From a phage, in assembly GCA_024613925.1 (NCBI GenBank), contig GCA_024613925.1_4713.1: a DNA stretch of 64,000 nucleotides; one strand, 5' to 3'. Shown piece after piece: positions 26,279-55,088 of the stretch. The position numbers and the translations under genes are program-made. Every line of letters starts with the position of its first letter. Position 1 is the first letter of the stretch. Under the pieces are notes generated by a model that was not told the origin of the DNA, did not search any database, and saw nothing but the letters and a program-made list of their open reading frames with translations.

Positions 26279-26289
26279 CTCGACATCCT

Positions 26290-26317
26290 TTTATATTGGA
26301 TTGATTGCAATTGTCTT
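26290..26317 (-). promoter_or_regulatory. Sigma70-like promoter candidate (AAGACA, 16-nt spacer, TATAAA) with conserved leader
   Basis: About 30 nt including the TATAAA and AAAGGATG ribosome-binding site identical to the leader of gene 54730..55047. Confidence 0.3.
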
Positions 26318-26449
26318 AAATAGATGATAAGATATTTTGCTCTTATCATTAAGGTAACGCTTACGCGTCGCGTTCATGATGTCATGCATCATGAAGGTAA
26401 TGTAGTCGTGAAATAAACTGCGTTAACACGAAATAAAACAGCATAGAAC

Positions 26450-26480
26450 CCTCTCCCAACCCGTAAGGGAAGGGAGAGGG
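26450..26480 (-). terminator. GC-rich hairpin, inverted copy of the 2264..2295 element
   Basis: CCCTCTCCCAACCCGTAAGGGAAGGGAGAGGG preceded by GCATAGAA. Confidence 0.4.
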
Positions 26481-26493
26481 AATATTAAAATTG

Positions 26494-26949
26494 TCACTTT
26501 ATATTGAACGCTTTTCGCAACGCATTAAGAACTAAATTAATTTCTTGCGCTTGTAACTTTAATCCCTGTGCTGAGCCATCAAACCCAAGCCAACGCCATA
26601 CAAGGCATTTTACAGGTTTGTTGTTATCGTCGATACTATATGTGATCTCCAGTGTACTTTGATACGCGTAGTCACCATGTGTTTTCAGCGACTGATTGAA
26701 ATAAATATCAAATGCTTCTTCTATAGCCTGTTTACCGCGATCGTTACAAACAAACGCGATGTATCCGTCGGAATATCCAACTTCCTCTGGATGTCCTTGG
26801 CAGGAGAAAATACTGATGGCGTCTTGCTGAGCAAGATTGAACACCGTGAAGAAATCACCAAATAAAGGATCGAGATTTAATGCGTTGTTATCGATAAGGT
26901 TCCTTACCGCTTTACGGTATTCTCCCAGACTATTGTTCGCTGTAAACAT
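26494..26949 (-). CDS. Small hypothetical protein (array member 8)
   Basis: 151-aa ORF. Confidence 0.5.
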   Translation of the reverse strand: MFTANNSLGEYRKAVRNLIDNNALNLDPLFGDFFTVFNLAQQDAISIFSCQGHPEEVGYSDGYIAFVCNDRGKQAIEEAFDIYFNQSLKTHGDYAYQSTLEITYSIDDNNKPVKCLVWRWLGFDGSAQGLKLQAQEINLVLNALRKAFNIK

Positions 26950-26959
26950 TCTTTTACCT

Positions 26960-27361
26960 TTAAATATCGTGGATAGCGGTGCCGTTTAGCCAACAATACA
27001 ACTTAATGCGACACGGATAGCGATTCGTAGCCAAGAGCAGTTCGTCGCGTAAACGCTGGTAGATTTCATCCTGGTGTTCACGATCAATTGGGTAATCAGC
27101 CCAACATTCGATCATGACGTCACCATTCGTCAGAATCGTCGTACGCATCCTGTCCTGGATACGGCGGTCTTTCCCGGCATTAGGGAAATACATTCCTTCA
27201 GTACGAATAAGGTCGCCGCAGGGCATGACTAACCATTCGTTCGTTTTGCCGGTATTCTTATAATCCATTACGGCTTGCATTGCGGTGTCAACGCTAAAAG
27301 AAACATAATTCCAAACGGATGTCCAACGATAGATTGCGGGTTGTTCGAGTGTTTCGTTCAT
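26960..27361 (-). CDS. Small hypothetical protein (array member 9)
   Basis: 133-aa ORF; possible TTGAAT-17-TAAAAA promoter upstream. Confidence 0.5.
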   Translation of the reverse strand: MNETLEQPAIYRWTSVWNYVSFSVDTAMQAVMDYKNTGKTNEWLVMPCGDLIRTEGMYFPNAGKDRRIQDRMRTTILTNGDVMIECWADYPIDREHQDEIYQRLRDELLLATNRYPCRIKLYCWLNGTAIHDI

Positions 27362-27575
27362 GGAGTGCTTGTCCTATTTTTTATTTTCTGCACAGGATAA
27401 ATTCAACGGCATAAAGCCCTTCCCTGCCCTTATATGGGGCGGGAAGAGTTTATGACCGCAATGAGAATCTCTCACGACAAGCTCACGACGATTATCGCAT
27501 CACCCCGCGAGTGAGGGAGATCAGGATCACCTCCTACGTCGTAACGACAGCAATCCCGTTACGTCGCCTTAGACG

Positions 27576-28202
27576 TTATGCAAAGCGACGCATGTAACCT
27601 GCCAGATAGTTACGCGTATCGAAGTAGGCAATTTCAGGAATTGCGATATTAAGGTCGATAGCGCGGATTTCAACTTGGCGACGGCTTTCATCATAGATCG
27701 CATCCATCAGACGCAGTACTGTCAGGAAAGCCATGCGTGTATGGTAGTCCAGCGGCATGTTATCGATACCGCGATACAGATAACGGTTTGCATTAAATGC
27801 CCCTTCGCTGTTATCTTTCCAGATCTTCAGAATATCAGCAAAGGCGGTGCGGAAAACCTCAGGATTATCCACATCCAGTAACGCACGGAAAGCAGACATT
27901 AAAGACCGCTGATGACGGATCAACGACTGCGGCGTTTGCGGCATGGTCGGACCCATTTCTTCCGCATATTTCTGGAACGGGGCAACCAGGGTTGCGGCAC
28001 GAGAAGCCACGATAGAAACAGCAGGCGATTCTTTCACCGCTGGTTTCGCAGGCTTTTCTTCAACAACGGTTTCCTTCTTCTCAACAGCGACCGTTTCCGG
28101 CTGTGCTACAACATCACCAACCGGAGCATCTGCAATGGTGGTTTCTACCGCAGTAATCTCCTCGTCCATTTTTGCAGAACGTTGGTCTTTATTCTTGCTC
28201 AT
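27576..28202 (-). CDS. Hypothetical protein with Lys/Glu/Val-rich low-complexity N-terminus
   Basis: 208-aa ORF. Confidence 0.5.
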   Translation of the reverse strand: MSKNKDQRSAKMDEEITAVETTIADAPVGDVVAQPETVAVEKKETVVEEKPAKPAVKESPAVSIVASRAATLVAPFQKYAEEMGPTMPQTPQSLIRHQRSLMSAFRALLDVDNPEVFRTAFADILKIWKDNSEGAFNANRYLYRGIDNMPLDYHTRMAFLTVLRLMDAIYDESRRQVEIRAIDLNIAIPEIAYFDTRNYLAGYMRRFA

Positions 28203-28227
28203 GTTTATTTCCTTTCATTTAACAAGG

Positions 28228-29529
28228 TTAACTAATATAAAGTTCAGGATCGTAAGGCGCTAACGATACACTGGCGTTATGCATTGCTTTCATCATAGTG
28301 TTCATGAAAACGTTGTTTACACCGGTGATCTCTGCCCCGATCGCATCTGGGGTTGGAGCCATCGCGTTACCGCAACAGGTAGCACAGTATTCCAATGGGC
28401 CTGCTTTACAACGTTGAGGATCACGTAACTTGATGGTCTGTCCTTCCAAGGAAGCGAGTAATTCAGCATCAATAAGTTTAAGCGCCGCGCCGTCGATCAT
28501 GTAACGGCCGACAAGCAGCTTATCTTTGATGTGGTCGCGGTTTACCGTGAACAGAATATGTTCGTGGGTACCGCAGTCGTCCATCGTGATTTTAAGGTTC
28601 TGTGTCGCACGTTGCGATTCTTTCGCCGTCTGTCCAGCTAAAGCGGTCAACGCACCACGTGAGAACGAACCAGCACGTGCGCTGTTGTTGTACTCCGCCC
28701 AATGGTCGACACGCATCCCTTCAGCCAGGCTGTGTGTGATAACGTTACGTTTACCGGGGTCAACGAAGTCGGCTTCAACCCCCATCATGATGTGCGTTTT
28801 CTTTCGAGTATTACCGAAACTCTTGCCTGGGTTAATATAGAACCCTTCCGATTCATCGCCCTTAAAGGATTCCTTATCCATTTTGGTTAACGTGGCTTCG
28901 AGTTTGATCAGTTCTTCAGGCGTGAACTTACCTTCCTCTTGTAAGCGTGCCAACTCTTTATCACGATAGGCAATAATATCATCATCGACCGTTAACGCCT
29001 TATCGCTCATCGATGGGACAATTAAACGGTTGATGGCGGTTAGCGCACTGATATTGTTGGTGAATTTCTTCACTTCGCTTGCGTACAACGGACCAATTGG
29101 ACGTTCGTTAGGATCGGGTATTCCCTCTTCAGGATCGTCCGCTACGCGTGGCGCAATCAGTGACTCCAGTGTACCGCTGGTTAACCGTCCTGCCTGATAT
29201 TCAATCTGAATACCGAAAGCATCATAAAGGACGTACATATTGAACAGAGCTTCGCCGAAGGTTGTGGTGGTTGTGTTCTTAACCGACGGTAGATCGCCAG
29301 GTGCGAGCTCCAATGGCTCCCAGAAACTCAACAAGGGTTTTGTTGGCTCGGTTTCCCACCGGTGTTCTTCACCGTCGATGGTAACCGTAACGACGTTACC
29401 TTGACGACGTAATTTAGGCTGATACTTCTCAGCGCCACCTTCCGTAAAAGCAAATGCGTCGTTAATCCATTCAAGATAACGGTAGTGCCCTTCACGCATC
29501 GCGTAAAGGAAATATTCACGAGGTGTCAT
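28228..29529 (-). CDS. Hypothetical protein with C-terminal Cys cluster (CKAGPLEYCATCCG)
   Basis: 433-aa ORF; no family assignable by eye. Confidence 0.55.
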   Translation of the reverse strand: MTPREYFLYAMREGHYRYLEWINDAFAFTEGGAEKYQPKLRRQGNVVTVTIDGEEHRWETEPTKPLLSFWEPLELAPGDLPSVKNTTTTTFGEALFNMYVLYDAFGIQIEYQAGRLTSGTLESLIAPRVADDPEEGIPDPNERPIGPLYASEVKKFTNNISALTAINRLIVPSMSDKALTVDDDIIAYRDKELARLQEEGKFTPEELIKLEATLTKMDKESFKGDESEGFYINPGKSFGNTRKKTHIMMGVEADFVDPGKRNVITHSLAEGMRVDHWAEYNNSARAGSFSRGALTALAGQTAKESQRATQNLKITMDDCGTHEHILFTVNRDHIKDKLLVGRYMIDGAALKLIDAELLASLEGQTIKLRDPQRCKAGPLEYCATCCGNAMAPTPDAIGAEITGVNNVFMNTMMKAMHNASVSLAPYDPELYIS

Positions 29530-29542
29530 GTAACAACTCCTT

Positions 29543-30421
29543 TTAAACCCGGGTCAGGTCACCGTGACGTGAAACGAACTCTGATAACGCTCGGGTTGCT
29601 TCTTTGGATTCTTCAGCCATCGGGAAGTTTGCGGTAATAAGTTCTCGTAAGACAGGGACGAGTTCGTTATCTTCGAGATCGGAAGCTAAAGCGAATGCAA
29701 TCAGTTCTTGGGTGTATGCGTACGGTTGCTGACGTAATGCAGCAAGCTGATCCCGACACTGCGCCATCAGCAGGTCCAGTGGAACCGCTATCGTACCCCC
29801 TTCATCAATATACTGGCTGAACACCGGTGGGAACGCATCGCTGATGACACGAATACGTCGACGAATATGATCCGGAATCTGGACGTTTTCCTCGTCGACT
29901 ATGTTCTCGCTGTCTTTCTCCAGCTTCTTGGTCAGTACCTGTTGAATGCGTGGGAGTAAGCTTGAATGTACGAAACCGATTAATGGGGTTACATTCGCAG
30001 CATCAACGCTGTAAATATGATGCACGCATTCCGCCAGCGCTTCAGCTGTGGTGTAGTCTTCATCTTCAACGATAGCAAGTAGAAAAGCGGTATCGTCGTG
30101 TGTTTCCAGGTCTAATAACGTAGACGCTAGCGCATGAAGATATTTCAGGCTATCCAGCGATAGCTGTCCTTCGTTAATTCGGATCCCGAAGGCAAGCAAT
30201 TGTTGTTTATAAAGTTCGATACATCCGTTTGTTAAAATGATGTCTAATTCGTTTAAATCGTATTGTTCCCCAGCACCTGACAACATCGTACTGCAGAACG
30301 TTTCCAGTTGTTCACATTTAAAATCTTGGTATAAACGATGCATGCAGTGCTGTAACAGCGTACGCCTTGTTTCAGGGATCTTACCTTCTAACAAAGCCAA
30401 GACGGAATCAATCATATCCAC
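29543..30421 (-). CDS. Hypothetical protein
   Basis: 292-aa ORF. Confidence 0.55.
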   Translation of the reverse strand: MDMIDSVLALLEGKIPETRRTLLQHCMHRLYQDFKCEQLETFCSTMLSGAGEQYDLNELDIILTNGCIELYKQQLLAFGIRINEGQLSLDSLKYLHALASTLLDLETHDDTAFLLAIVEDEDYTTAEALAECVHHIYSVDAANVTPLIGFVHSSLLPRIQQVLTKKLEKDSENIVDEENVQIPDHIRRRIRVISDAFPPVFSQYIDEGGTIAVPLDLLMAQCRDQLAALRQQPYAYTQELIAFALASDLEDNELVPVLRELITANFPMAEESKEATRALSEFVSRHGDLTRV

Positions 30422-30511
30422 TCCGATGCGGTAAATGTCTACTAGCTCTCATAATCTATTGAAGAAACTACCAGCTTACGCCAACTTAGATTAATCAGGA
30501 GTAACCATCCC

Positions 30512-30985
30512 ATGCCAGTTTCATCCAAACCAAGAAAAAAATCCGTAGGAAACCCTAAAGCTCAGGAAACAACAGCAATTCGTTGGGACGAGTTACGTGA
30601 ACCTATCGAAAACTGCGAATTGTTATTAGGTACCCTGGGTGCGGCTATTTACCAAGCGACGCAACCCTGTCGTTTACGATTAACCCAAAACAAACGTGAT
30701 GAGTTCGTTGCGTTATCAACAAGCACGAATAAAGATCTGACCGAACTTCAAACCGAGTTGACGACGATCAAGAACTCCATTACGCCGATGTACGGTAAAG
30801 AAGTTGATGAACAAAGTATTCTGTTACAGTACAACTACGGGATGTCGTTAATGAACATCCTGGAACGCGCATCCGATATTCTGCGTCCTGACGTTGCACG
30901 CCTGAGCCAACTGCGTGTCGAAGGGATGGAGAACCAGATCCGATTCGCTAACAGTGTTAAATCTCAAGGAGCCACCGAAGCATGA
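30512..30985 (+). CDS. Hypothetical protein
   Basis: 157-aa ORF; AGGAG before ATG; 4-bp overlap with next gene. Confidence 0.5.
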   Translation: MPVSSKPRKKSVGNPKAQETTAIRWDELREPIENCELLLGTLGAAIYQATQPCRLRLTQNKRDEFVALSTSTNKDLTELQTELTTIKNSITPMYGKEVDEQSILLQYNYGMSLMNILERASDILRPDVARLSQLRVEGMENQIRFANSVKSQGATEA

Positions 30986-32667: not shown

Positions 32668-32729
32668 TCGATCCGCGATACGGGTTACATGACGGACAAC
32701 TTGTTCGTAATGATGAAAAAATCTGGGAA

Positions 32730-33089: not shown

Positions 33090-33090
33090 A

Positions 33091-33600: not shown

Positions 33601-33611
33601 TGCAACGGTAA

Positions 33612-33653
33612 CATAACCCTCTCCCTTCCCTTACGGGTTGGGAGAGGGCTTAT
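33612..33653. terminator. Bidirectional hairpin between convergent genes
   Basis: CATAACCCTCTCCC...GGGAGAGGGCTTATG extended stem, same core as the 2264 and 26450 elements. Confidence 0.5.
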
Positions 33654-33665
33654 GCTGTTATGTTA

Positions 33666-34040: not shown

Positions 34041-34049
34041 GTGTTACCC

Positions 34050-34619: not shown

Positions 34620-34640
34620 GTAGACACCACCTCCAACGTG

Positions 34641-37253: not shown

Positions 37254-37275
37254 TAAAAACCTCAGCCCTTTAGAA

Positions 37276-37917: not shown

Positions 37918-38055
37918 GGTCTTGTCCTATACGTTGGTGGTTGAAATGGCGGATATCGGATGCATGCTGGACGTGAACCCTATAATTCGCGCTATCGCCA
38001 TTTTCTACCTCGTTTCTATTCTCAAAAAGGAAATTTCATACGATGACGCCATAGC

Positions 38056-38090
38056 AGCTCCTCCTTCCCTGACGGGTTGGAGGAGCATAC
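38056..38090 (-). terminator. GC-rich hairpin downstream of the lipoprotein gene
   Basis: GCTCCTCC ttccctgacgggtt GGAGGAGC with CATAGCA flank. Confidence 0.35.
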
Positions 38091-38094
38091 TTAA

Positions 38095-38641: not shown

Positions 38642-39226
38642 TTACACAGTTGTAGGAAATTCCGGCCAATCGATATTTGGTGCTGTTGATGTGTCAACGC
38701 GATGCAGAGCCACCCGATACTTTTTCCATGCCGTCAACATGGACACCTCTTCTTCCGTTGCGATCTCCAGATCCACAGCATCCTGAAGTGGCGTAATATG
38801 ATCATTCGCCGCCTTCATCAGACTGTTTTTTGTTTCTTCCGCCTCCCGGATCCGGAACAGTTTTTCTGCTTCCGTATCCTTCACCCAGGCTGTGCCGTCC
38901 CACTTCTGAAACTCCCCTTCCGGCGATAACCAGGTAACATTTTCCGGTAACGGACCGAGTTCAGAAATAAATAACGCGTCGCCGGAAGCCACGTCATAAA
39001 CCGTTTTACCCCGATGATCTTCAACGAGATGCCACGATTCATTTTCATTGTTAAAAACTGCCACAAAACCAGCAGGAATTTCCGGTGGGGCGATATCTGT
39101 AGAATTAGCTGGCAGACCTGTATGAGGCGGAATATATGCATCACCTTCACCAATAAATTCATTAGTTCCGGCCAGCAGATTATAAATTTTTATGGTCCGT
39201 GGTTGTTCACTCATTCTGAATGCCAT
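38642..39226 (-). CDS. tfa: Tail fibre assembly protein (lambda Tfa family)
   Basis: [39 protein letters not shown]... matches the lambda/E. coli prophage Tfa chaperone as recalled from memory; directly follows the fibre gene with start/stop overlap. Confidence 0.85.
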
Positions 39227-42200
39227 TATGCAAGCCTCACGATGTAGTTAAATGCAATGTTTTTGACGGTGTTTTCCGCGTTACCCGTAGCGTTAACGGT
39301 GATGGTGTGTCCATGTGATCCAATCGCAACCGAGTGCGTATGCGCACCAATACCTACAGTATGTGCATGTGCGCCAGAACTTGCTGCAGTACCAGACAGC
39401 GAGTGGGTATGTGCTCCATCTGATGATGTCTTCCCTGATATACGGGTCATACCTGAGCCACCTTCCAGTGGTACAATTGGTGCTTTGACTGAAACCTGGG
39501 TATAACCGTTAGGAAAGAGTGCACCATTATTAGAATTCGTATATGGTCCAGAACTCCGGTGTTGGTGCCCACCTGCACTATTTGCAGTCCCGCTCACACT
39601 GTGTGTATGTGCCCCGGTGTTATTCGTGGATTTAGTGCCGTAATCAAACGACGATGTGGTTTTCGTCCCCAAATCCGTATTGGATGCGCTGGCGCTATGG
39701 TTGTGCGATTTTATGCCGTCCTGTTCCTGAGACAATACGGCACGACCACTGGCAGGTTTGCCCTTAATCGTCCAGCCACGCATATCAGGAATAACGCCTG
39801 ACGGATAAGCCACTGCAAGTTTCGGGTATACAGATTTGTCAAAAGTCTGCCCTTGCATCAGAGCATAACCAGACGGAACGGTATCTGAAGGCCATGGAAT
39901 AGGCGCGCCAACAGGCAACTCCGGAGGTGCGGTAAACTCACCCAACTCCTTTATTGCCTCAATAAGTAGAGCTATTTGGGCAGAGATAGAGACCGTTAAA
40001 ACGTCCTCACCATTAGCGTCTTTATAAGTAGAAACTGCTTCAGGTAACACTTTTTGTAAGGTTTGTGCTACAACGCCAACCTCACGATGAACATTAGTGG
40101 ATTTAAAGTTCTCCTTTTTGTCGTATATTAAACCTGACAATTTCTTTACCTTCTCCAATGCATTAGTTATTGGAGAGAAATTACTTTTCAGCCGGGCGTC
40201 TGATCGTGTATAAACTTCGTTAAAGTTACCGTTCCCATCACAATCTATATTTCCAGTAACGTTGAGAGGTACATAGCTTTGAACAGCCTCTCTCGTAAAG
40301 CGTAAAACGTGGTCATAATCGGCGTAAACATCTAGAACGCCGTCCCCGTTCTGCTTAAAGCCGGTGTCATCATCCCCTAAAGCTATGGAGTTCTCACCTA
40401 AATGATTCTCGGTTCCAATACCCAGATTATCGCTTAAAATACTATCAATAGCAAATATTGAATGAGAACAATAAAACCCTCGTCCATTGTTAAAATCCAA
40501 AATGGTTTGTGCGTTCGTGCTTTCTGTCGCGGGATTAGTTGCTCCCCACTTATAGGTTGTTTGACCGACGGTATAATTCTTGGTCGGAACACTAACCGAT
40601 AACCCTTCTTCGGCAAAAACTTGAATAGGGAAAGCCCTACCTTCGACGTAAAAAACGCTGCACACATCATCATCTTCCGCACCTGTTACAATGGAATGGA
40701 TTGCGCGCTCATCAGTATCATATATCGAAAAATACCCTGCTGCGTATGAACCACGATCAGTCCAACCGCCCGGCATTACCGTTCCATTGAATTCGCAGTT
40801 ATTCATTGCATAATCACCACTGGCAGATGTGGTTGTAATAACCACTCTGGAAGCCAGTTCGCCAGTGCTACCAGTGGAACGCCGGAAAATAACTGGATAC
40901 CACTTTCCGCCAACGGCTTTAGACGGCGCGTTAAATACGTACTGCCGCATTCCTTTTTTCTTATCCACCTCGTCTTTGCTGTAAACATTAATGTTACTCA
41001 GGAAGCGACCCTTATCAGGAATATCTGCGCCGTTAGAACTGCGTTGCATAGCGCCCGCAGCTTTATCAACAGTGGTTTTCAAACCCAGGAAGTTAATGAT
41101 ATCGGCCGTCGACCCTTTCGCTAACAAATCACGCGCAGTCGAGGTGAAATCCGCTAACCCTACCTGATTACTACCGGTAAAATAAGGGAGTTTATTCGCT
41201 TCTGTTGTTAGGTTAGACCACGCCGTGAGCAGCGCGTTCAAAGGTTGTTTACCCGCCAACGTATTGGTTATTGTCGTTGCGAAATTAGGATCGTTCCCTA
41301 AAGCTTGAGCCAGCTCATTAAGCGTATTTAGCGCTTCTGGAGACGAGTCGATCAGTGATGCGATAGCACGCATCACAAATTCCGTGTTGGCAATCTGTCG
41401 ACTGCTATCGTTCTCTGCAGCCGTAGGCGCTGCCGGGATACCGGTGAACACAGGGCTATTAAGATCTGCCTTGAGAGCGATGAGACGTTTAAGTGCGTCG
41501 ACATCGACTTTCAGGTTTTCCCATCCGATGAGAGAACCACCACTGCTGGCATGGTAACGGTTGTACCAGAAGTCACCGTTAACGCCTAAAAAGAATATTC
41601 CCTTCTCTTCGTTTTGTGGGCCGGAACTATTTCGTGACGAGCTGATGTAATTGATTTCAATGAGGCCGTTAAACGTCACTCCCGGGATGATTTTGTTGTC
41701 TCCAGCCGACTGTGATACCTGGTAAATCCCCGGGGTTGCGGCTTTGACCCATGTTAAGAATTCTGTTACTCCAGCGGTACCGCTGAAATTCTTAACGTCG
41801 GTAAGTATTGCCCCATAACCGAACATACCGGGTAGAGCCACTCGTCCGTTGGTGCGGTCACGAATATCTGTTGCAACAACAGGCAATTGTTTACGAACGG
41901 CATTAACCGCTTTAGGCGTGGCCGATTTTGTCTCGTCGTCGCTATCGGTTTCATTACTTAGAATAGTTAAACCGCGCGTAGCAGTCGTTGCATCAGGAAG
42001 AAATGCGTTATCCAACACCTTAAGCTGTATTGCACTCGTATTACTAACAACGACATGCACCTGACAGTTAAGAACGCTGGTTGCGCCTTCGGTAGGCGTA
42101 GGCTTATATCTTTCTGGCGCACTGCAGACGGCAATCAGAACACCTTGGTCATCATACAAACCGATCTCACGTACCCAGAACCCACCTTGACCAGCAGGAA

Positions 42201-42972: not shown

Positions 42973-43127
42973 AAGCGCACCCTCCTCCAACAATCAAATT
43001 AAATTGTAAACGCCTCGAGACCGGAGTGCGATTCGAGGTAAACGTAAACAGTCCAGACGACCGCATAAAATTCCGCGCATATTGCCCCTCTATCCCGACA
43101 AAGCGAGATAGAGGGAGGATAATACTT

Positions 43128-44882
43128 TTATGCTGCTACGTATCCCGGCCAACGTTCTCTTGGCCAGTTTGTTGCGCCCTGCCCAACGTTGTCCTTACCA
43201 GAAATTACATTACTTACGTCCCAACCGCTAAGGTCTTGGTTAAATGCGGTGTTATCGCGCATCATGAGATCGATCTCACGTAGTGACTGGGTATTCCAGC
43301 CGGAAATGTCTTGGTTAAATGCTTTATTGGAGGCAAACATGTTAGTCACGTTCTGTAATTTTGATGTGTTCCAACCACCGATATCACTATTGAACGACGT
43401 GTCCGAGAACATGCCTGCGGCGTTAATGAGGCTGTCTGTTTTCCAGTTAATCAGCTTGTCACCATCGAGCGCCCTGCAACCACCGAACATAAAACTCATA
43501 TCGTTAACTTTGGATACATTCCATTTATCTAACCCGTTACCAACGAACGCGTAACAAGACTGGAACATCCAGCTCATATCGGTAACCCGACTCACATTCC
43601 ATTTACTGAAGTCGAGGTTAAGTTTCTGACACCCTAAGAAGGTTTCACACATACTGGTGATACGACTAACATCCCACTCTTGGATGTTGGGGTCGTTAAG
43701 CGTCGTTAAATAGTTGAACAATTTGTCTAACGACGTCCATTTCTCTGGGATACGGTTTGGTACTGTATGAAGCGATGAAAGGTTATTGGTTGATGGAGAG
43801 CGGAACATGCCGTTATCCCAATTTACGATCTCCGTAATTTCGTACCCTCTGATCGTCTGAGTAGCGTAACCATCTTTCACCGTACCTGTAGCGACGATGG
43901 TATATTCACCAGTGTCCGCATAATCGTGGACGTAGGCATTGTTGCTGGCGGTCTCCGTCGTCTTAGTCCCATCACCCCAATCGATATTGACGTTATCCCA
44001 CCCACCTAGTTTGAACTGTACTTTGCCTCCGGTGGCTTTTAGGATGTATTTACCCCCATTGTCTGTATAATAACAGACAACCATTGGACCGTACAGATTA
44101 CCTATCTGCCAATCATCCTTTTGCGTTATTGCGATTTGCGCCGCACCACGCTGTACGAAGAGTACCGTACGATTCTCGGCAGTCTGTAATGTGGTTATTG
44201 CCTGAGCCTTATCGTCCTCGCTAATTTCACCAGACACCACTAAAGCGCTTAACATCCTTTCGAAGTATTCGATCGGTAACTCAGCTCCAACAGACTTATC
44301 AACAGACTGTACAGCAAGATCACCCAATGCTGCAGTGGTAGCCAATGCCAATGAACCCTTGGTCATATCTGTTTCTTGGATGTAATGCAGTCCCGTAAGC
44401 TGGTACGCTTGAATAATAGTAATCAGGTTCAGCGTATCGTTAACGACCTGTACTTGTAAATACCCGGACCACACATAGCTGTCTTCGGCAATTAGTAGAT
44501 CGACTGACTGAATACCTGATGTTTCAAAGGTGATCTTCTCATTAAGATCGGTTTCCAGGAAATCAACCGCGAGGTCGAAATTAATGCCGTACTTTTCAGC
44601 GATGGAATCTACGATATTTCTTAAAGTAACATCTGTGCTTACGATAAAACGTAACGGAATTCCTGTAAACGCTTTAGCAATGTCTCGACGAACATACGTA
44701 AGCGATTGTTCGAAGAAATACGGGCTGTTATCTCCAGGCTTGATGGTTACCTGGCACACTTCAGGATATTCGGCTGGGATGAACGATTCGAATTTAACAT
44801 CGGATTCTTTCAACGAAAGATTGTTATTCCGGTTCACTAACGCCAGAAGATCGGCTTTCCATCCGGGGTAAACTGTAGACAT
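43128..44882 (-). CDS. Tail fibre with N-terminal anchor domain and C-terminal DUF285/BspA-like repeats
   Basis: Start moved to ATG at 44882 (MSTVYPGWKADL, GGAG upstream); C-terminal repeats WDVSRITSMCETF / WNVSRVTDMSWMF / WNVSKVNDMSFMF / WNTSKLQNVTNMF / WNTQSLREIDLMM / WDVSNV. Confidence 0.65.
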   Translation of the reverse strand: MSTVYPGWKADLLALVNRNNNLSLKESDVKFESFIPAEYPEVCQVTIKPGDNSPYFFEQSLTYVRRDIAKAFTGIPLRFIVSTDVTLRNIVDSIAEKYGINFDLAVDFLETDLNEKITFETSGIQSVDLLIAEDSYVWSGYLQVQVVNDTLNLITIIQAYQLTGLHYIQETDMTKGSLALATTAALGDLAVQSVDKSVGAELPIEYFERMLSALVVSGEISEDDKAQAITTLQTAENRTVLFVQRGAAQIAITQKDDWQIGNLYGPMVVCYYTDNGGKYILKATGGKVQFKLGGWDNVNIDWGDGTKTTETASNNAYVHDYADTGEYTIVATGTVKDGYATQTIRGYEITEIVNWDNGMFRSPSTNNLSSLHTVPNRIPEKWTSLDKLFNYLTTLNDPNIQEWDVSRITSMCETFLGCQKLNLDFSKWNVSRVTDMSWMFQSCYAFVGNGLDKWNVSKVNDMSFMFGGCRALDGDKLINWKTDSLINAAGMFSDTSFNSDIGGWNTSKLQNVTNMFASNKAFNQDISGWNTQSLREIDLMMRDNTAFNQDLSGWDVSNVISGKDNVGQGATNWPRERWPGYVAA

Positions 44883-44922
44883 AAGCACTCCAAAGTTCAT
44901 GGGGCGGTAACCGCCCCGTTGG

Positions 44923-48519: not shown

Positions 48520-48532
48520 TATTTACTCCACC

Positions 48533-49363: not shown

Positions 49364-49420
49364 GCTGACCTCATAGATGATCGTTGATAGGAAAGAGACC
49401 TAATTCATACCATGGGAACC

Positions 49421-49476
49421 TTAAAAAAAAGAAAAATAGGAAAACGGTGTTCATCCTTTTAGGGATGAACACCGTG
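49421..49476 (-). terminator. Rho-independent terminator (minus strand)
   Basis: 13-bp stem ACGGTGTTCATCC/GGGATGAACACCGT followed on the minus strand by a long U-rich run. Confidence 0.65.
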
Positions 49477-49494
49477 TACCGTTATATCGAACGA

Positions 49495-50070
49495 TTAATG
49501 AGGAATCAGATCGTTAAGCTTTTCTTCTTCAATGACAAAGAAGTTGTTCTGGTCGTCTAAATCTGTTAACAGGACTTGCCCAACAGTAAAGCAAGTTCCG
49601 CCTTTCTTAGGCACCCATACAGGCTCGTTCGTTACCTTATCGGGATACCATTTGAAACGATTGGTATCTAAGAAGAACGCTGCTTTGTTCGCTTTATCGG
49701 TTGAACGATAGCTAACTAGCGCAGGCCACTCAATCCAGGTGTTTGTGCACGGCACATGTAAAGGATACCATGCGCGCCAGCGTTTGCCTGGCCTGTTAGG
49801 ATCAACCCAATACTCGGCAGTCAATACAGCATCTTTATAATGTTTCTGCATTAACATTTCGAGCACAAGCTCATTGCCTTTTGATGCGTCTAAAGTCACT
49901 TCCGTCATATAAAGAGATTTAGGTAATTCAGACTGTTTTGCGGGTGTTACAACACCGGTAACCAACGGTCTGCTCGGTTTACGTTTCTGTTCTTTCCGAC
50001 GTGTGTAAAAGAATAGTCCGATAGATACAGCAACAAGTATAATAAACAACACTACCTTAATCCAACTCAT
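49495..50070 (-). CDS. Hypothetical protein with N-terminal transmembrane helix
   Basis: MSWIKVVLFIILVAVSIGLFFYTRRK..; 4-bp overlap with upstream gene. Confidence 0.5.
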   Translation of the reverse strand: MSWIKVVLFIILVAVSIGLFFYTRRKEQKRKPSRPLVTGVVTPAKQSELPKSLYMTEVTLDASKGNELVLEMLMQKHYKDAVLTAEYWVDPNRPGKRWRAWYPLHVPCTNTWIEWPALVSYRSTDKANKAAFFLDTNRFKWYPDKVTNEPVWVPKKGGTCFTVGQVLLTDLDDQNNFFVIEEEKLNDLIPH

Positions 50071-50855: not shown

Positions 50856-50892
50856 GATTACTAGTACACAGGTTACTGAATTTCTGTAAAAG

Positions 50893-51393
50893 TTAATGTT
50901 TGTTCTTTACGAACTCTATCGCCTCCAGAATACCAGCGTTTAATCGTTGACCGCGTTCCTCCATTGTCCCGCCATCGCGATGTTTGAAATTAACCGAGTG
51001 GATATCCCAAGCCCAGTAATGTGTCTCCGGCGTGTCGTCTTCTTTGGTGGGATCGCTCAATCTGTTAACCCCAATTCGCCAAATATAATCAGCGGGTTGT
51101 CGTCGTAAGCATTCACCTATAGCGTCTATATAAGACAACCCTTCGGTCGTCACAGCGACGACAACGTGTGGGTGTTTTTTGACTTCTTTGGTTGTTTGTT
51201 TGCCGTCCAATGTCACGCTGATCTTTTGAATTTCGTGTCCTTCGCACGACCATATCGGTGCAATACCTGGCGCATCTAACAACGCCTGGCATGCGGGTAA
51301 TATACCAGGTTCAATGACTCCTTCCTTGATAGCCATCCGTGCGCGTTCTTTGAATATCGCTAATTGTTCTTCGGTGACAACAAAAGAAAACAT
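50893..51393 (-). CDS. Hypothetical protein
   Basis: Start moved to ATG at 51393 (MFSFVV) with AAGGAG 6 nt upstream. Confidence 0.5.
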   Translation of the reverse strand: MFSFVVTEEQLAIFKERARMAIKEGVIEPGILPACQALLDAPGIAPIWSCEGHEIQKISVTLDGKQTTKEVKKHPHVVVAVTTEGLSYIDAIGECLRRQPADYIWRIGVNRLSDPTKEDDTPETHYWAWDIHSVNFKHRDGGTMEERGQRLNAGILEAIEFVKNKH

Positions 51394-51465
51394 AATTACT
51401 CCTTTCTGGTTCTTCCCCTCCACAGCTTCAGGAAGAGAAGAACCGTTTGTTACGTTGCTAAGTAA

Positions 51466-51723
51466 TTAAAAGGCGTTGATTGGATTGTTCAATGCTTTAT
51501 CGCGGATTTGAATTGCTGCTCGCATTGCTTTCTGATACGAATCGTAAGCATCAACAGAAACCGTCATATCAACCAATTTCTCTAATACGGATTCAGCCGC
51601 TTTTACGCGGATGCGGAACTTGGTGATGGCGTTATCTTTGTTACGATAAACCGTGATATGGTGCAGCGGTTGAACGTTAGTTTTATTTGTTTTAACGGAT
51701 TTAGTTGCTTTGATCGTTTTCAT
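51466..51723 (-). CDS. Small basic hypothetical protein
   Basis: 85-aa ORF. Confidence 0.45.
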   Translation of the reverse strand: MKTIKATKSVKTNKTNVQPLHHITVYRNKDNAITKFRIRVKAAESVLEKLVDMTVSVDAYDSYQKAMRAAIQIRDKALNNPINAF

Positions 51724-51777
51724 GATGATTTCCTTCTTTATTAGGATAATTACGTTTTAGTCAGTTTAACAGCATAA

Positions 51778-51803
51778 ACCCTTCCTGCGTAAGGCAGGAA
51801 GGG
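51778..51803 (-). terminator. GC-rich hairpin with AGCATAAA flank
   Basis: CCCTTCCTGC gtaa GCAGGAAGGG, perfect 10-bp stem. Confidence 0.4.
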
Positions 51804-51817
51804 CATACGGATTTGTT

Positions 51818-52315
51818 TTACGTGTGTCGTCGTTTACCAAAGAAAATGTGGCTGTCTACCACGGTGATATTGGTAGCATGTTTTCTGAAATGTTTAGGGC
51901 GAAGATGTTTCGTGTTAAAGAATACGGCTCCTCGTGTTGGGTCGGCTTTATGGTAAGCCGCAATGTCAGTATAACGTAATGTTGCGACCTCTCGTGCTAT
52001 TGCTCTTGCTCGCTCAAAAGCAGCATGATCGCGTATGATAATACGCCTTTGTTTTGTCCAGGGGAATTGACCTCTTTGCAGTACGACGTCTTTGACGTTC
52101 GTAGGGAATCGGTAGTCCATAGATCGATTATGTATTAAAAACGCCACGGAGTATTGCCCTTTTACAGATTCGCCTCTGGCTTCCATATACACGGCGCATG
52201 CGACGATCTCTTTCCGGCAATCGATTCTAGGTCCTGCGTTCACTGATGCTTGACTGAACGGTGTGATAAGCAACATAACAAGCCCTAAAATCAACGTGTG
52301 TAAAATACCTTGCAT
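51818..52315 (-). CDS. Putative endolysin, SleB/CwlJ-type cell-wall hydrolase with N-terminal signal or signal-anchor sequence
   Basis: CAVYMEARGESVKGQYSVAFLIHNRSMDYRFPTNVKDVVLQRGQFPW matches the YxEARGE...NR...FP...QF signature of Hydrolase_2; hydrophobic N-terminus MQGILHTLILGLVMLLITPFSQA. Confidence 0.6.
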   Translation of the reverse strand: MQGILHTLILGLVMLLITPFSQASVNAGPRIDCRKEIVACAVYMEARGESVKGQYSVAFLIHNRSMDYRFPTNVKDVVLQRGQFPWTKQRRIIIRDHAAFERARAIAREVATLRYTDIAAYHKADPTRGAVFFNTKHLRPKHFRKHATNITVVDSHIFFGKRRHT

Positions 52316-52567
52316 CTTAATAACCTCACGATAAGGTGCTGTCCACTGGCGTCTTGATAACGCATCCCGTCATCGGGTTGTTCTATTCAGCGGGCAGCAG
52401 GTTAGCGTCAGATGTTTGCCCGACATCCACGACAGAAATAAACGGTACTGAAAATACGGTCTCCTCTGGTTTGGCAATAAACATAACGTTGGATAACAGA
52501 ACCCATTTCCCGCATCCAACGCGGTAAAGGTGTACATCGTTTGAATTCATATAGTTTCTCAAAGATG

Positions 52568-52879
52568 TTAACCTCTACCGTCGAGCCATAGGTTGTATTT
52601 ATCCCGAACATACGGATCGCGATAAATACGTCGATAGACTTGATGTGGTATAAACTCGCAATGTACGAGTTCGTCGCTTAATTTATGACGTCGTTCCATA
52701 ACGTTGTGAATACGACGTATCTCCCGGATATTAAAGGTTGTTTTATTCAAGAGAATAGACATAATGGCGGATCGATGATCCAGATTAAAGATCGCCATCA
52801 CGCTTCGTATCTCGCGTAAAACAACTTCCCTATCGACAAGGATGCGATTAGTTAACTTAAGATTCTCCGTGATACCCAT
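52568..52879 (-). CDS. Hypothetical protein (uncertain)
   Basis: Track ORF 52568..53050 trimmed to ATG at 52879 because its N-terminal part overlaps the better-supported membrane-protein gene. Confidence 0.3.
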   Translation of the reverse strand: MGITENLKLTNRILVDREVVLREIRSVMAIFNLDHRSAIMSILLNKTTFNIREIRRIHNVMERRHKLSDELVHCEFIPHQVYRRIYRDPYVRDKYNLWLDGRG

Positions 52880-53249
52880 AACCTTCATCCTCGACACGTC
52901 GACACCTCGGTAAAAATAAACACCAGCTTGTTGCACTGAGGATCGCCGTTGCGATGATACTTGCGATATCACCCAGTCGAGCATCGACCTGCCACATAAC
53001 AAGCATAAAAAGCCACATAACAAGCATAAAAAGAACGTACGCGAACCCATACACGATAAACCGTTTGATGTTGCGCGTCGACCCCGTACAAATATACAAA
53101 AGGGGAAGCTGCCCTATAACACAAACGATGGTTCGGATAACGTAATAAACGCGTTCCGTCGTTGTTTCAAAATCGATATTCGTTGCAGAAATCCCGATCA
53201 TTATAAAAGTGAAAAAGAAATAGATTTTTGCGTATGTCTTTAAACTCAT
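52857..53249 (-). CDS. Multi-pass membrane protein (lysis-associated candidate)
   Basis: 130 aa with about four hydrophobic segments; contains the in-frame duplication FMLVMWL FMLVMWQ. Confidence 0.5.
   Translation of the reverse strand: MSLKTYAKIYFFFTFIMIGISATNIDFETTTERVYYVIRTIVCVIGQLPLLYICTGSTRNIKRFIVYGFAYVLFMLVMWLFMLVMWQVDARLGDIASIIATAILSATSWCLFLPRCRRVEDEGYGYHGES
52991..53032. repeat. Perfect 21-bp tandem direct repeat, two copies
   Basis: GCCACATAACAAGCATAAAAA twice, read directly from the sequence. Confidence 0.9.
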
Positions 53250-53265
53250 GGCTTTTCCCGATCGT

Positions 53266-53460
53266 TTATTTGTGTTTTCCTACATTCCTCAACAAGGTAA
53301 CGATAACGAATACCGCTATCATCAAGAAGACGAACCATAACCCTACGTTAATTCGAGCAGCAGGTTCATCGACCATGAAGAACATCATCCCACAAAACCC
53401 AATGACCATCCATGCTAGAACCATCCCCGTTAATCCCCGTAGTAGCATATGTCCCATCAT
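53266..53460 (-). CDS. Small two-helix membrane protein (holin-like candidate)
   Basis: Start moved to ATG at 53460 (MMGHMLLRGL) with AGAAGGAG ribosome-binding site; two hydrophobic stretches. Confidence 0.45.
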   Translation of the reverse strand: MMGHMLLRGLTGMVLAWMVIGFCGMMFFMVDEPAARINVGLWFVFLMIAVFVIVTLLRNVGKHK

Positions 53461-53861
53461 GAACTCCTTCTTACTTTTTCTGATAAAGCGATGATTCAAA
53501 TTTTAGAAACATCCCTAATGCGAATGCGAGTAATATCGCACGTACCCACATACCTCCTTGACAACTGTTGTACAACATAAAGACCAGAGCGATGCCGCCC
53601 ATATGCAGGCGGCACTTATCGAACAGTGTTGGTTTATACATAAGAGATCAATCGTTGAATGATTTTTACTTTGCCTTTACCTGGACCTTTCTTGCGGCGA
53701 TTCAACAGACGGATACTGTTTCCAGTTACGGTGTCGCCATCATAATCAGCCTGGAACTGTGATAAAAAAGCAGGCTGTATCGGATCGACACCAGGATTGC
53801 TATAGAAAGGATTGAGACTTAAAAGAGGATTAGCTGGAATCATCGTATTGTCCTTACTCAA

Positions 53862-54212
53862 TTATTTACCCAGATAGAGGTATTCACCACCCTGAACAAC
53901 CCCGGTTGCTGGATCAACAAGTATACGAACCCGCGCGTAGGTCTTGAAAGAGGGGTTGAAAACTTCGAAGTCTGCCACTTTCAATTTCACGCTGGGGTTG
54001 GTAGGGTTCTTAACTCCGGGAAGTTCTTTCGGGGTACCAAAATCAACACCACATTCTTCAAGGTCTGCTGGTGTCATGCTCTCCATGGCCATGTAGATTG
54101 CTTTTGCTTTATCGTAAACTTCTGGGCTATCCAGCAACCCAGCCTGTGCTGAACCGACAACACTACCGAACAGAATAGCAATAGCAACAAACAATTTAGT
54201 TAACGTTTTCAT
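53862..54212 (-). CDS. Secreted or periplasmic protein with signal peptide
   Basis: MKTLTKLFVAIAILFGSVVGSAQA then mature region; GAGGA ribosome-binding site. Confidence 0.55.
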   Translation of the reverse strand: MKTLTKLFVAIAILFGSVVGSAQAGLLDSPEVYDKAKAIYMAMESMTPADLEECGVDFGTPKELPGVKNPTNPSVKLKVADFEVFNPSFKTYARVRILVDPATGVVQGGEYLYLGK

Positions 54213-54248
54213 GATATTTTCCTCGAAAGTAAAATGTTACAATACCTA

Positions 54249-54671
54249 TTAACGTACGGCCGCTACGCTGTTAGCGCATGCCTGAATATCATCGGTATTT
54301 ACGATGATGGTTTCGTTAAACGCACGAATACGCGCACGACGTGCTTCTTTAAGGCTGGCGATTGCGCTAGCAGCTTGATCTGTATTCGCAAGGCTAATAA
54401 CCGGGATCAAACGCATGTCAGGACTGCAGATATTCAATGCTTGGTATACACGCCCATTGATTCCTACGGTATCAGACATCGGATAGTGCGCGCTGCATTG
54501 AAATTGACCCATGACAACAAGCGAACGATCGGAGATACCAATCTGATAACGCCCGTCTTCGCTGTAGGCGTAGCAGTTATTCCCACGAGCCATCCAGTTA
54601 GCCTGTGCTTGCGTGCTAACAAAAGCCAGAGTGGTAACGATAGCGAATACGATATTTTTGAGCAGTTTCAT
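54249..54671 (-). CDS. Secreted protein with signal peptide
   Basis: Start moved to ATG at 54671 (MKLLKNIVFAIVTTLAFVSTQAQA) with GAGGA ribosome-binding site; four Cys in the mature part. Confidence 0.55.
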   Translation of the reverse strand: MKLLKNIVFAIVTTLAFVSTQAQANWMARGNNCYAYSEDGRYQIGISDRSLVVMGQFQCSAHYPMSDTVGINGRVYQALNICSPDMRLIPVISLANTDQAASAIASLKEARRARIRAFNETIIVNTDDIQACANSVAAVR

Positions 54672-54729
54672 GATAAAGATCCTCGTTGAAATAAAATCGG
54701 TATAAAGGCCCCCATTTAGGGGGACCTGA

Positions 54730-55047
54730 TTAGTTTGCACGTAAGAAATGACCCAGAACCGTTACGATTGGAAACAGTCCTGTAACAGTACCATCGCCCG
54801 AAAACATCATCATTGTTCCGTTAACGGTGATGAAACGGATGTCGGTTGCGGACCCATCGATAGCGACAAAACGCATCGAGTTCGGTGGAAGGTCCTCAAC
54901 CACTTCCACGAGATACTCGCGATTATCAAAGGCTTCTTTAACACGACGCATGAAACGAATCAATGTTCCTTCAGCGTCGGCTTCCAAATGGCCTAAGATA
55001 TCGCGATTATTACGAACAGCGAATACAGCCATTTTAAACATACACAT
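54730..55047 (-). CDS. Small hypothetical protein
   Basis: 105-aa ORF; shares promoter and leader with gene 25853..26278. Confidence 0.45.
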   Translation of the reverse strand: MCMFKMAVFAVRNNRDILGHLEADAEGTLIRFMRRVKEAFDNREYLVEVVEDLPPNSMRFVAIDGSATDIRFITVNGTMMMFSGDGTVTGLFPIVTVLGHFLRAN

Positions 55048-55058
55048 CTTGACATCCT

Positions 55059-55088
55059 TTTATATTGGATTGATTGCTAATAATTCAA
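55059..55088 (-). promoter_or_regulatory. Sigma70-like promoter candidate (TTGAAT, 18-nt spacer, TATAAA) with conserved leader
   Basis: Leader GCAATCAATCCAATATAAAAGGATGTC repeated at 26280-26306; preceded by hairpin GGTGAAGC..GCTTCACC. Confidence 0.3.

Follow-up and report, generated by a model that had tools for sequence, protein, structure and literature searches.

A leader element repeated before two unrelated genes of a Goslar-like jumbo phage: a probable ribosome-binding module of mosaic early cassettes

What is the role of a short sequence that stands almost unchanged before two unrelated genes in distant parts of a jumbo phage genome? In the 64,000-nt stretch of DNA analysed here (the window), which is ~95% identical to the Escherichia coli jumbo phage Goslar (Chimalliviridae), the 27-mer GACATCCTTTTATATTGGATTGATTGC occurs exactly twice, at 26282–26308 and 55051–55077, with 28.8 kb between the copies, both of which are also found at the orthologous places in Goslar. 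The first-pass annotation had the second copy in its exact position but placed the first one 2 nt off, at 26280–26306. As it also reported, both copies adjoin minus-strand start codons directly upstream (Table 1). The repeat pair extends to 34 nt, running through the ATG and one further base, with 33 of the 34 positions identical (97%). Its earlier description as a regulatory rather than a coding unit holds; it carries a ribosome-binding site, AAGGA, located 7 nt before the ATG.

No further matches to the 27-mer were found in the window at up to three mismatches, and none in 100 shuffles. A search of both the window and the whole Goslar genome with the 27-mer and three of its sub-patterns, at up to eight mismatches, yielded no additional copies save one weak look-alike, which lies upstream of Goslar gp97 (window ORF 51466..51723), is ~67% identical, and was judged not significant. 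Of 81 exact repeats that measure 18 nt or more, the element is the sole two-member regulatory repeat; the remaining ones are almost all terminators, early promoters, tail-fibre and other coding repeats, or the terminal overlap of the record. Complementary (antisense) matches to the element elsewhere span only 11–12 nt, and their number is that expected by chance according to our own estimate.

The proteins encoded downstream of the two copies are indeed dissimilar, as had been stated, and hidden homology between them was ruled out by BLASTP, which gave no alignment at E ≤ 100, and by profile–profile comparison with hhalign (probability 0.3%). Neither protein has a match in Pfam or PHROGs. The AF2 model of gp75 (pLDDT 76) showed no significant match in PDB or BFVD save one other Goslar protein (TM 0.5), and the model of gp105 (pLDDT 57) was too poor for a structure search. 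The terminator that directly follows the stop codon of gene 1 indicates that this promoter–gene–terminator unit is monocistronic. The terminator-like hairpin on the other side of the locus 1 cassette belongs to a family with six copies in the window, and its motif is similar to the terminator consensus of phiKZ given in PMC10914365. An extra ORF (26494–26949) adjoins this cassette.

The notion that the element itself represents a phage-specific promoter class does not survive a genome-wide search, which over the full 237 kb of Goslar found only two copies of the 27-mer and, with up to seven mismatches allowed, no variant. Judging from sequence comparison, the real phage-specific promoter class appears to sit 40–80 nt upstream of each copy, in the form of a ~40-nt motif, TTTCACGRCTAYATTACYTnnnTGA. 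In Goslar it is found 13 times, without exception on the minus strand; the window contains exactly two sites, each located upstream of a different copy of the element. The PWM scores are 46–54 bits at 12 of the Goslar sites and 30 bits at the 13th, compared with 19.8 bits for the next best match, and a scan of the window at a 12-bit threshold returned only the two upstream sites, with equal scores (Table 1). In the same scan, the repeated 27-mer gave no early-promoter match, and it contains no TAYATTAC.

The upstream motif has a conserved AT-rich core with a T/A-rich upstream element, namely TAYATTAC following TTTCACGRC and an A/T-rich tract. In phiKZ, this motif (TATATTAC-N5-TGA, again with upstream sequence rich in A/T) is present seven times within the first 50 kb of the genome, all on the gene strand. 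The transcription starts of phiKZ P001, P012 and P028 determined by ONT-cappable-seq fall on the G/A of this TGA (supplement of 10.1101/2023.10.13.562163), and the TGA is invariant also in the Goslar and window motifs. By homology to these mapped early promoters, transcription is predicted to start at the corresponding positions of both loci, which would place the exact 27-mer at +37..+63 (locus 2) and +82..+108 (locus 1) of the early 5'UTRs. The Goslar sites thus share with the phiKZ early promoters, which are those of the virion RNA polymerase, the TATATTAC core, the A/T-rich upstream part, the TGA, the strand bias and the intergenic position. They differ in having the additional conserved TTTCACGRC block, in tolerating TACATTAC, and in that the Goslar starts are predicted only; the repeated 27-mer lies outside the motif, 37–108 nt downstream. 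All 13 Goslar sites are upstream of minus-strand genes and 12 of them lie in annotated intergenic DNA, with the site at 49732 falling inside the annotated 62-aa Goslar_00047. One site is located 80 nt before Goslar_00189, a homologue of PHIKZ054 (E = 8e-18), which would put a promoter before the nuclear shell gene; the chimallin genes of Goslar and phiKZ carry nearly identical versions of the motif.

Table 1. Features of the two cassettes in the window (positions are those of the whole stretch)
Feature	Position	Strand	Remarks
Intrinsic terminator (GGTGGGGTTCGCCCCACC + T10)	25800..25827	-	Right after gene 1 stop
Gene 1	25853..26278	-	141 aa; homologue of Goslar_00075; ORFan restricted to Goslar-like phages
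Copy 1 of the putative leader/translation-initiation module (GCAATCAATCCAATATAAAAGGATGTCGAGATGT)	26275..26308	-	SD AAGGA 26286-26290; ATG 26276-26278
Leader hairpin B, locus 1 (ATGATAAGA-GCAAAATA-TCTTATCAT)	26324..26349	-	
43-nt leader insertion	26351..26393	-	Absent from Goslar; flanked by TTACCTT repeats
phiKZ-type early promoter motif, locus 1	26385..26429	-	Core TACATTAC 26397-26404; predicted TSS G/A of TGA, 26390/26389; PWM 49.5 bits; phiKZ homology
Terminator-like hairpin, conserved tail (CCCTCTCCC...GGGAGAGGG TTCTATGCTGT)	26431..26480	-	Directly upstream of early promoter 1
Gene 2	54730..55047	-	105 aa; homologue of Goslar_00105; ORFan restricted to Goslar-like phages
Copy 2 of the putative module (GCAATCAATCCAATATAAAAGGATGTCAAGATGT)	55044..55077	-	SD 55055-55059; ATG 55045-55047
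Leader hairpin, locus 2 (GGTGAAGC-13 nt loop-GCTTCACC)	55089..55117	-	Stem invariant, loop variable among relatives
phiKZ-type early promoter motif, locus 2	55109..55153	-	Core TATATTAC 55121-55128; predicted TSS 55114/55113; PWM 49.5 bits; phiKZ homology

On balance, we consider it moderately likely that the repeat is not a promoter but the ribosome-binding 3' end of two mRNA leaders in mosaic early cassettes. From 5' to 3', each cassette would comprise (terminator), phiKZ-type early promoter, 5' stem-loop(s), spacer, 33-nt translation-initiation module and AUG. Transcription, presumably by the injected virion RNA polymerase, would start at the conserved TGA, 7–8 nt after TAYATTAC, so that the repeat would be transcribed as the final ~30 nt of the 5'UTR. 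The module, with its G-poor, A/U/C-rich tract (CAAUCAAUCCAAUAUAAAA) and the subsequent SD (AAGGA or GAGGA) 7 nt before the AUG, would then be the place at which ribosomes load onto the mRNAs of two unrelated early ORFan genes. The identity of the copies may go back to recombination that copied the module between cassettes, and purifying selection, possibly aided by occasional copy-to-copy conversion, may have kept it almost unchanged since. Most likely, the element, although well conserved, is shuffled regulatory DNA of a rather ordinary kind.

Only the 33 nt are common to the two loci. The subtypes of promoter and hairpin differ, with locus 1 being similar to Goslar gp46/gp21 and locus 2 to gp4/gp182, and the other 11 Goslar early leaders are unrelated to the element. 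The leader hairpins have no U-tracts, and Rfam 15 contains no family that matches either locus at the gathering score. In relatives, the stem of hairpin B is retained and its loop is replaced, with the stem base varying between G.U, A-U and G-C. The 43-nt insertion carries a second hairpin (TTCATGATG-catga-CATCATGAA, 26373–26395), and the same insertion module follows a different Goslar early promoter (at ~226,690 in Goslar) and is found in the relatives L022 and L028, while L014 contains different inserted hairpins. Recombination breakpoints appear to be located at both edges of the element. In L027, the element is kept and the upstream DNA is entirely different, with the switch exactly at GCAATC and no recognisable early promoter; in L026, the leader is kept up to GGATG before a protein that is only 55% identical. 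The arrangement in L027 would also be compatible with promoter activity of the element or with read-through transcription.

At least 15 Goslar-like genomes have the element in conserved form, with the reservation that a part of the comparative set was retrieved using the element itself as the query and is biased, so that only the protein-ascertained loci are unbiased. Every Goslar-like genome sampled has the pair, even where gp75 is only 73–79% or 55% identical, which indicates that the pair is old. In comparisons with the divergent gp75 homologues, the element is 91–94% identical, as opposed to 77–78% for the CDS nucleotides and 60–64% for third codon positions; it is far better conserved than the latter and than the adjacent spacer. 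In the diverged leaders, the TATAAA hexamer is destroyed (CACAAG in L032 and L033, TGTAAA in L031) and AATCAATCC and GGATG persist. The two copies agree in the A/G state of the SD (AAAAGG versus AAGAGG) in five of the six genomes that have both loci, and disagree in ERZ1643250. In three further assemblies, a break lies exactly 30 nt ahead of the first base that differs, from which it follows that their copies agree over 30 nt or more. Clean concerted evolution of the copies was considered as well, but this view is weakened by the discordant ERZ1643250 and by homoplasy at the A/G site.

The 20 nt before the SD are more nearly identical than a generic ribosome-binding site requires and, given that the other early leaders are unrelated, selection may act on something more specific. 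The targets of T4 RegA are translational operators that overlap the SD. It is possible, although rather unlikely, that the module is likewise a sequence-specific post-transcriptional operator, through which a trans-acting RNA-binding factor, encoded by the phage or by the host (e.g. CsrA), co-regulates translation or stability of both early mRNAs via the SD-overlapping sequence. Such an operator would account for an identity that reaches 20 nt beyond the SD on its upstream side and that both copies have retained throughout the clade despite the divergence of near-neutral sites, as well as for the matching A/G states and the inferred identity over at least 30 nt; the discordance in ERZ1643250 argues against it, and no candidate factor was identified. 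The 11/12 fit of ATAAAAGGATGT to the CsrA SELEX consensus RUACARGGAUGU (PMC4347634) and the conserved overlap with the SD of more than one mRNA are reminiscent of E. coli CsrA sites. However, we rejected a CsrA binding site: the ACA of the consensus, reported to be 100% conserved, reads AAA in the element; there is one GGA per leader instead of paired sites, and it is predicted to lie in a weak 4-bp stem (AUCC/GGAU) or to be unpaired, not in a hairpin loop; and Goslar has three matches at 11/12 or better against 2.4 expected, that is, no genome-wide excess. The narrower version, in which the 33-nt module is a dedicated cis-acting operator, with CAAUCAAUCC...RGGAUG bound by a phage- or host-encoded RNA-binding factor on exactly two early mRNAs of nucleus-forming phages so that their translation is coupled, appears unlikely. 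If true, it would bear, for example, on the timing or balance of two ORFan proteins whose synthesis takes place before the genome has left the early vesicle, and the parallel A/G tuning of both copies would reflect co-evolution with the factor. If the element did turn out to be a specific translational operator, it would offer an initial way into the post-transcriptional control of these phages; the data at hand do not call for such a role.

It also seems improbable that the identity of the copies is merely historical, resulting from recent duplication or short-patch gene conversion, with a generic Shine-Dalgarno as the only function. The cassettes are visibly mosaic, as seen in the 43-nt insertion, the inserted hairpins of L014 and the L026/L027 breakpoints, and phiKZ has a comparable duplicated leader, but the age of the pair and the conservation of the element far beyond that of third codon positions and adjacent spacer speak against this explanation.

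Very improbable is the proposal that the element is or contains a second promoter, either of the host sigma-70 type or a middle or late promoter of the non-virion RNA polymerase, for expression continued past the early phase: the TATAAA hexamer, the retention of the element in L027 without an upstream early promoter, the presence of early and late promoters before continuously expressed AR9 genes (PMC7598289) and the finding that most Goslar genes detected at 5 min remain detectable later (PMC10541120) would fit it, but there are only two copies per genome, TATAAA is lost in L031–L033, scanning the minus strand for the sigma-70 consensus gives no call for the element at either of the loci, and phiKZ-like phages transcribe independently of host RNAP. 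Furthermore, a sigma-70 promoter should have -35 and -10 hexamers 16–18 nt apart and a start that keeps the ribosome-binding site in the transcript. TATAAA directly adjoins the SD (AGGA), and a start 6–8 nt past it would leave the SD out of the transcript, so the -10 and ribosome-binding readings are mutually exclusive. The phiKZ late promoter is characterised by a TATG that overlaps the start site and of which every base is required (PMC7598289); the shared 34 nt contain no TATG, although this motif is that of phiKZ and may not be that of the Goslar non-virion RNA polymerase. The -10/-35 assignment of the first-pass annotation is therefore abandoned as a misreading in which an AT-rich hexamer beside a ribosome-binding site was taken for a promoter.

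A close parallel to the module comes from phiKZ, in which PHIKZ006 and PHIKZ010.1, two unrelated early proteins, are preceded by an identical regulatory block of ~65 nt that ends at the SD. In that pair, the whole promoter and leader are common and the copies are 1.85 kb apart, whereas the Goslar-like pair has only the last 33 nt in common, with different promoter subtypes and 28.8 kb between the copies. Another parallel is provided by the promoter-early stem-loop cassettes (PeSLs) of T4-type phages (PMC2839356). These are composite intergenic cassettes of ~100 nt that combine an early promoter with a stem-loop and end in SD and start codon; they are repeated before unrelated ORFans, tied to insertions, deletions and replacements, and have crossovers between promoter and SD. 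Mini-circles are a further product of recombination between PeSLs. The PeSL promoters are sigma-70-like and served by the host RNAP, whereas those of the Goslar-like cassettes seem to be of the phage-RNAP type; the PeSL stem-loops are terminators, whereas the Goslar-like hairpins are at the 5' end of the transcript, with separate phiKZ-like terminators upstream; and only two of the Goslar-like cassettes share the SD-proximal module.

The early promoters of a Goslar-like chimallivirus can thus be located, with starts predicted to the nucleotide from phiKZ data, and the early regions of nucleus-forming jumbo phages would consist of exchangeable modules (terminator, promoter, 5' hairpin and ribosome-binding leader), much like the T4-type PeSLs. 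For Goslar engineering, the module and the promoter set would be ready-made parts; in evolutionary terms, the module would be a marked recombination joint. Both loci carry a PeSL-like unit, that is, an early promoter, a stem-loop and SD/ATG in conserved intergenic DNA before ORFans, and the edge breakpoints in L026 and L027, the 43-nt leader insertion and the extra ORF would fit recombination between such cassettes.

The window shares ~95% identity with Escherichia phage vB_EcoM_Goslar, a jumbo phage of the Chimalliviridae that forms a nucleus, and the two genes preceded by the repeat are orthologues of Goslar_00075 (gene 1, gp75) and Goslar_00105 (gene 2, gp105). The 27-mer GACATCCTTTTATATTGGATTGATTGC is present in two exact copies, one at each start; allowing up to 3 mismatches adds no further match in the window, and 100 shuffles gave none. 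Both copies read GCAATCAATCCAATATAAAAGGATGTC-R-AGATGT on the minus strand, and the extended pair, which ends one base beyond the start codons, is identical at 33 of 34 positions. The first-pass annotation had reported the same sequence before these two genes and is borne out, with correct coordinates for the second copy, but the first copy was placed 2 nt too low. Its statement that the two proteins are dissimilar also holds, as BLASTP detects no similarity and profile-profile comparison of the families gives a probability of 0.3%. Neither product has a Pfam or PHROG match. Fold searches with the gp75 structure model (pLDDT 76) gave nothing significant, its top structural hit in BFVD being another Goslar protein of 163 aa (TM 0.5); the model of gp105 is unreliable. 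The repeat includes a Shine-Dalgarno sequence (SD), AAGGA, 7 nt ahead of the AUG. The 20 nt preceding it are free of G and mostly unpaired in structure prediction, save for a marginal 4-bp AUCC/GGAU stem. No Rfam family matches this module.

In Goslar, the element is found at both orthologous places, where the gp105 copy differs by a single T>C change, and nowhere else in the 237-kb genome; no other variants were detected there at up to 7 mismatches. A motif search that returns only two copies speaks against the phage-specific promoter class that had been proposed. Goslar has 81 pairs of exact repeats that are 18 nt or longer. The element is the sole two-member regulatory repeat among them; nearly all of the others are terminator hairpins, early promoters, coding repeats (tail-fibre or otherwise) or the terminal overlap of the record. 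A terminator-hairpin family with a YTTATGCTGT-type tail dominates these exact repeats. Elsewhere in the window, at 51724-51756 (minus strand), upstream of the ORF 51466..51723 and after a terminator hairpin, GTAATTATCCTAATAAAGAAGGAAATCATCATG is ~67% identical to the module with SD and ATG aligned; this could be a third, degenerate relative or merely a similar ribosome-binding context.

When the two loci are aligned, they prove similar in a further stretch, 40-80 nt upstream of the element. Goslar has 22 occurrences of the octamer TAYATTAC on its minus strand and a single one on the plus strand, and 13 of these sites have a common ~40-nt motif, roughly TAA..A....TTTCACGRCTAYATTACYTnnnTGA. In a weight matrix built from the 13 sites, 12 of them reach 46-54 bits and the remaining one 30 bits; the best match elsewhere in the genome has 19.8 bits. 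Just two matrix sites fall in the window, each upstream of one element copy. The 19.8-bit variant lies just upstream of the RNA polymerase beta-like gene Goslar_00165, and the site at 49732 falls within Goslar_00047, annotated as a 62-aa gene, perhaps wrongly. Genes downstream of the motif include Goslar_00189, homologous to the phiKZ nuclear shell protein PHIKZ054 (E=8e-18); the chimallin promoter reads aatgaaaaaaatttgagattTATATTACtaaattgaatc in phiKZ versus attgaaaaaaatttcagggtTATATTACctaggtgaatg in Goslar. The first 50 kb of phiKZ contain 7 copies of TATATTAC, all on the gene strand and in the same context. These sites are early promoters mapped experimentally by ONT-cappable-seq (10.1101/2023.10.13.562163, supplementary table), and the starts P001 (2176), P012 (23599) and P028 (45583) correspond to the G/A of TGA, 7-8 nt past TATATTAC (10.1101/2023.10.13.562163). 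Such motifs are described in reviews as early promoters of the virion RNA polymerase, detectable bioinformatically in every RNAP-encoding jumbo phage (PMC7598289), and the geometry in AR9 is alike, AAATATATATTAT-(6N)-G+1 (PMC5312081). The transcription starts predicted by homology would give 5'UTRs of 66 nt at locus 2 and 111 nt at locus 1, with the 27-mer at +37..+63 and +82..+108, respectively.

Coordinates of the repeat, its genes and associated signals (window unless stated otherwise)
Feature	Position	Strand	Remarks
27-mer	26282-26308; 55051-55077		copies 1 and 2
Extended pair	26275-26308; 55044-55077
Gene 1 ORF	25853..26278	-	141 aa, start codon at copy 1
Gene 2 ORF	54730..55047	-	105 aa, start codon at copy 2
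Matrix sites	26385-26429; 55109-55153		loci 1 and 2
Predicted start, locus 1	26390/26389		Goslar counterpart 86,691/86,690
Predicted start, locus 2	55114/55113		Goslar counterpart 113,783/113,782
phiKZ-like terminator, locus 1	26431-26480	-	CCCTCTCCC...GGGAGAGGG TTCTATGCTGT; from six-copy family
Strong intrinsic terminator after gene 1	25800-25827	-
Leader hairpin, locus 2	55089-55117	-
Six-copy terminator-like family	2256-2300, 10546-10590, 23476-23520, 26441-26485, 33609-33653, 38048-38092
13 motifs, Goslar MK327938	226695, 201944, 187639, 172978, 166069, 160791, 142800, 113797, 86705, 49732, 43266, 15067, 2567	-	T of TAYATTAC
Weak site, Goslar MK327938	151634	-
Duplicated cassettes, phiKZ (L040)	2625-2708; 4476-4559		diverge ~10 nt before start codons

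Locus 1 is a self-contained monocistronic unit. On the minus strand a phiKZ-like terminator comes first, followed by the early promoter, a pair of hairpins, a spacer and the module, and after the gene there is a strong intrinsic terminator. At locus 2, the promoter directly follows the stop codon of the upstream gene and is succeeded by one hairpin, a spacer and the module. Most of the 13 Goslar early leaders have a hairpin that starts beside the conserved TGA, though a few show it only weakly or unclearly; beyond this, the leaders are unrelated save for the 33 nt common to gp75 and gp105. The promoter and hairpin of gp75 resemble those of gp46 and gp21, and those of gp105 resemble gp4 and gp182; because the subtypes differ, the shared piece is a module joined to different upstream parts and not the remnant of one duplicated cassette. 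The six-copy terminator-like family, G/C-rich palindromic hairpins with a conserved YTTATGCTGT-type tail, resembles the conserved phiKZ terminator motif (PMC10914365).

Homologues of both proteins were found in Goslar-like phages only, with identities of at least 84% for gp105 and down to 55% for gp75. In all of the genomes or contigs examined, at least 15, the element stands before both genes; this set was retrieved in part with the element as query, and is to that extent biased, and otherwise through the proteins, which is unbiased. It is 91-94% identical where gp75 homologues share 73-77% of amino acids, 77-78% of coding nucleotides and 60-64% of third codon positions, and the adjoining spacer is far more variable. 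In the diverged copies AATCAATCCAACACAAGAGGATGCTAGGATG (relatives L032 and L033) and AATCAATCCATTGTAAAGGGATG (ERZ28623650), TATAAA is gone and AATCAATCC and GGATG are kept; complete genomes with diverged copies are ERZ28623650 scaffold_5, with CCATTGTAAAGGGATG at gp75, and the ERR4405639 phage, with CCAACACAAGAGGATGCTAGG at gp105. In one relative (L027), the element precedes the gene but the upstream DNA, from GCAATC onwards, is wholly different and has no early promoter; in another (L026), promoter, hairpin and element through GGATG are retained and the protein behind them is only 55% identical. Leader 1 of the window carries a 43-nt insertion (26351-26393) that Goslar lacks at this locus but has behind another early promoter, and that is found in other relatives; L014, a further relative, has a different hairpin inserted in its leader. 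The leader hairpins retain their stems and swap their loops, the base of the gp75 stem being G.U, A-U or G-C. The ORF 26494..26949 (151 aa; region 26490-26959), between the gp76 orthologue and the terminator and early promoter of gp75, has no Goslar counterpart; its end recurs in ERZ28623650, and this is an insertion/deletion polymorphism adjoining the cassette.

At the SD-proximal A/G position (AAAAGG or AAGAGG), the two copies agree in five of the six genomes where both loci were seen and disagree in ERZ1643250. Logan contigs from three samples (L035, L037 and L039) start exactly 27 nt upstream of the gp105 ATG; these assemblies break 30 nt (k-1) before the first differing base, so the copies would be identical there too over at least 30 nt. 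Both observations are suggestive of conversion or parallel selection but not conclusive, since one shared change would arise by chance with a roughly estimated probability of ~0.05.

On the best-supported reading, the repeat would be the translation-initiation end of two early mRNA leaders, a module of mosaic regulatory cassettes that are probably reshuffled by recombination, and it appears to be held by purifying selection. It would belong to a known kind, shuffled early regulatory cassettes, and be neither a promoter nor a promoter class. The closest described analogue is the promoter-early stem-loop cassette (PeSL) of T4-type phages, an early promoter and stem-loop that ends in SD and ATG, is repeated before ORFans and mediates the shuffling of modules, crossovers falling between -10 and SD (PMC2839356). 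The cassettes here differ from PeSLs in having separate terminators and a promoter of the phage-RNAP type. In phiKZ, two early cassettes (PHIKZ006 and PHIKZ010.1) have an identical ~65-nt promoter and leader through the SD, and their proteins are unrelated.

A more specific role of the module as a translational operator is compatible with this evidence. ATAAAAGGATGT fits the CsrA SELEX consensus at 11 of 12 positions, but the invariant ACA is absent, the single GGA lies outside any hairpin loop, and matches to the consensus are not enriched in the genome. A second promoter within the element is unlikely, even though L027 has no early promoter upstream and most early Goslar genes remain expressed later in infection (PMC10541120): there are two copies per genome only, a sigma-70 scan gives no call on the element, and the shared part is without TATG, which the phiKZ late polymerase requires (PMC7598289). 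Moreover, the -10 and ribosome-binding site assigned by the first-pass annotation are mutually exclusive, because TATAAA abuts AGGA and a start 6-8 nt past the -10 would drop the ribosome-binding site from the mRNA. Of the original interpretation, a repeated regulatory unit with a ribosome-binding site stands and the promoter does not.

Several other features of the window deserve mention. An Rfam group I intron (21742-22067, plus strand, 73 bits) starts at the 3' end of the ORF 20649..21755, within a segment (20581-22113) without alignment to Goslar; the DNA-polymerase-like gene 19081..20580 lies upstream of it. A full-length Rfam IS009 match (163 bits; 38685-38883, minus strand) in the tail-fibre and tail-fibre-assembly region is probably sequence common with E. 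coli prophage tail-fibre genes, rather than a phage sRNA. Collinear Goslar matches are missing at 12231-13892, 17806-18755, 38684-41173 and 43140-44885, and 43882-44712 matches Goslar at ~145.3-146.1 kb on the opposite strand (68-76% identity); these non-collinear stretches suggest that modules have been exchanged in the tail-fibre and structural region. Downstream of gene 1 is a run of small ORFan genes (22456-25781, minus strand), with faint paralogy between 24085..24543 and 24610..25110 (E=4e-5).
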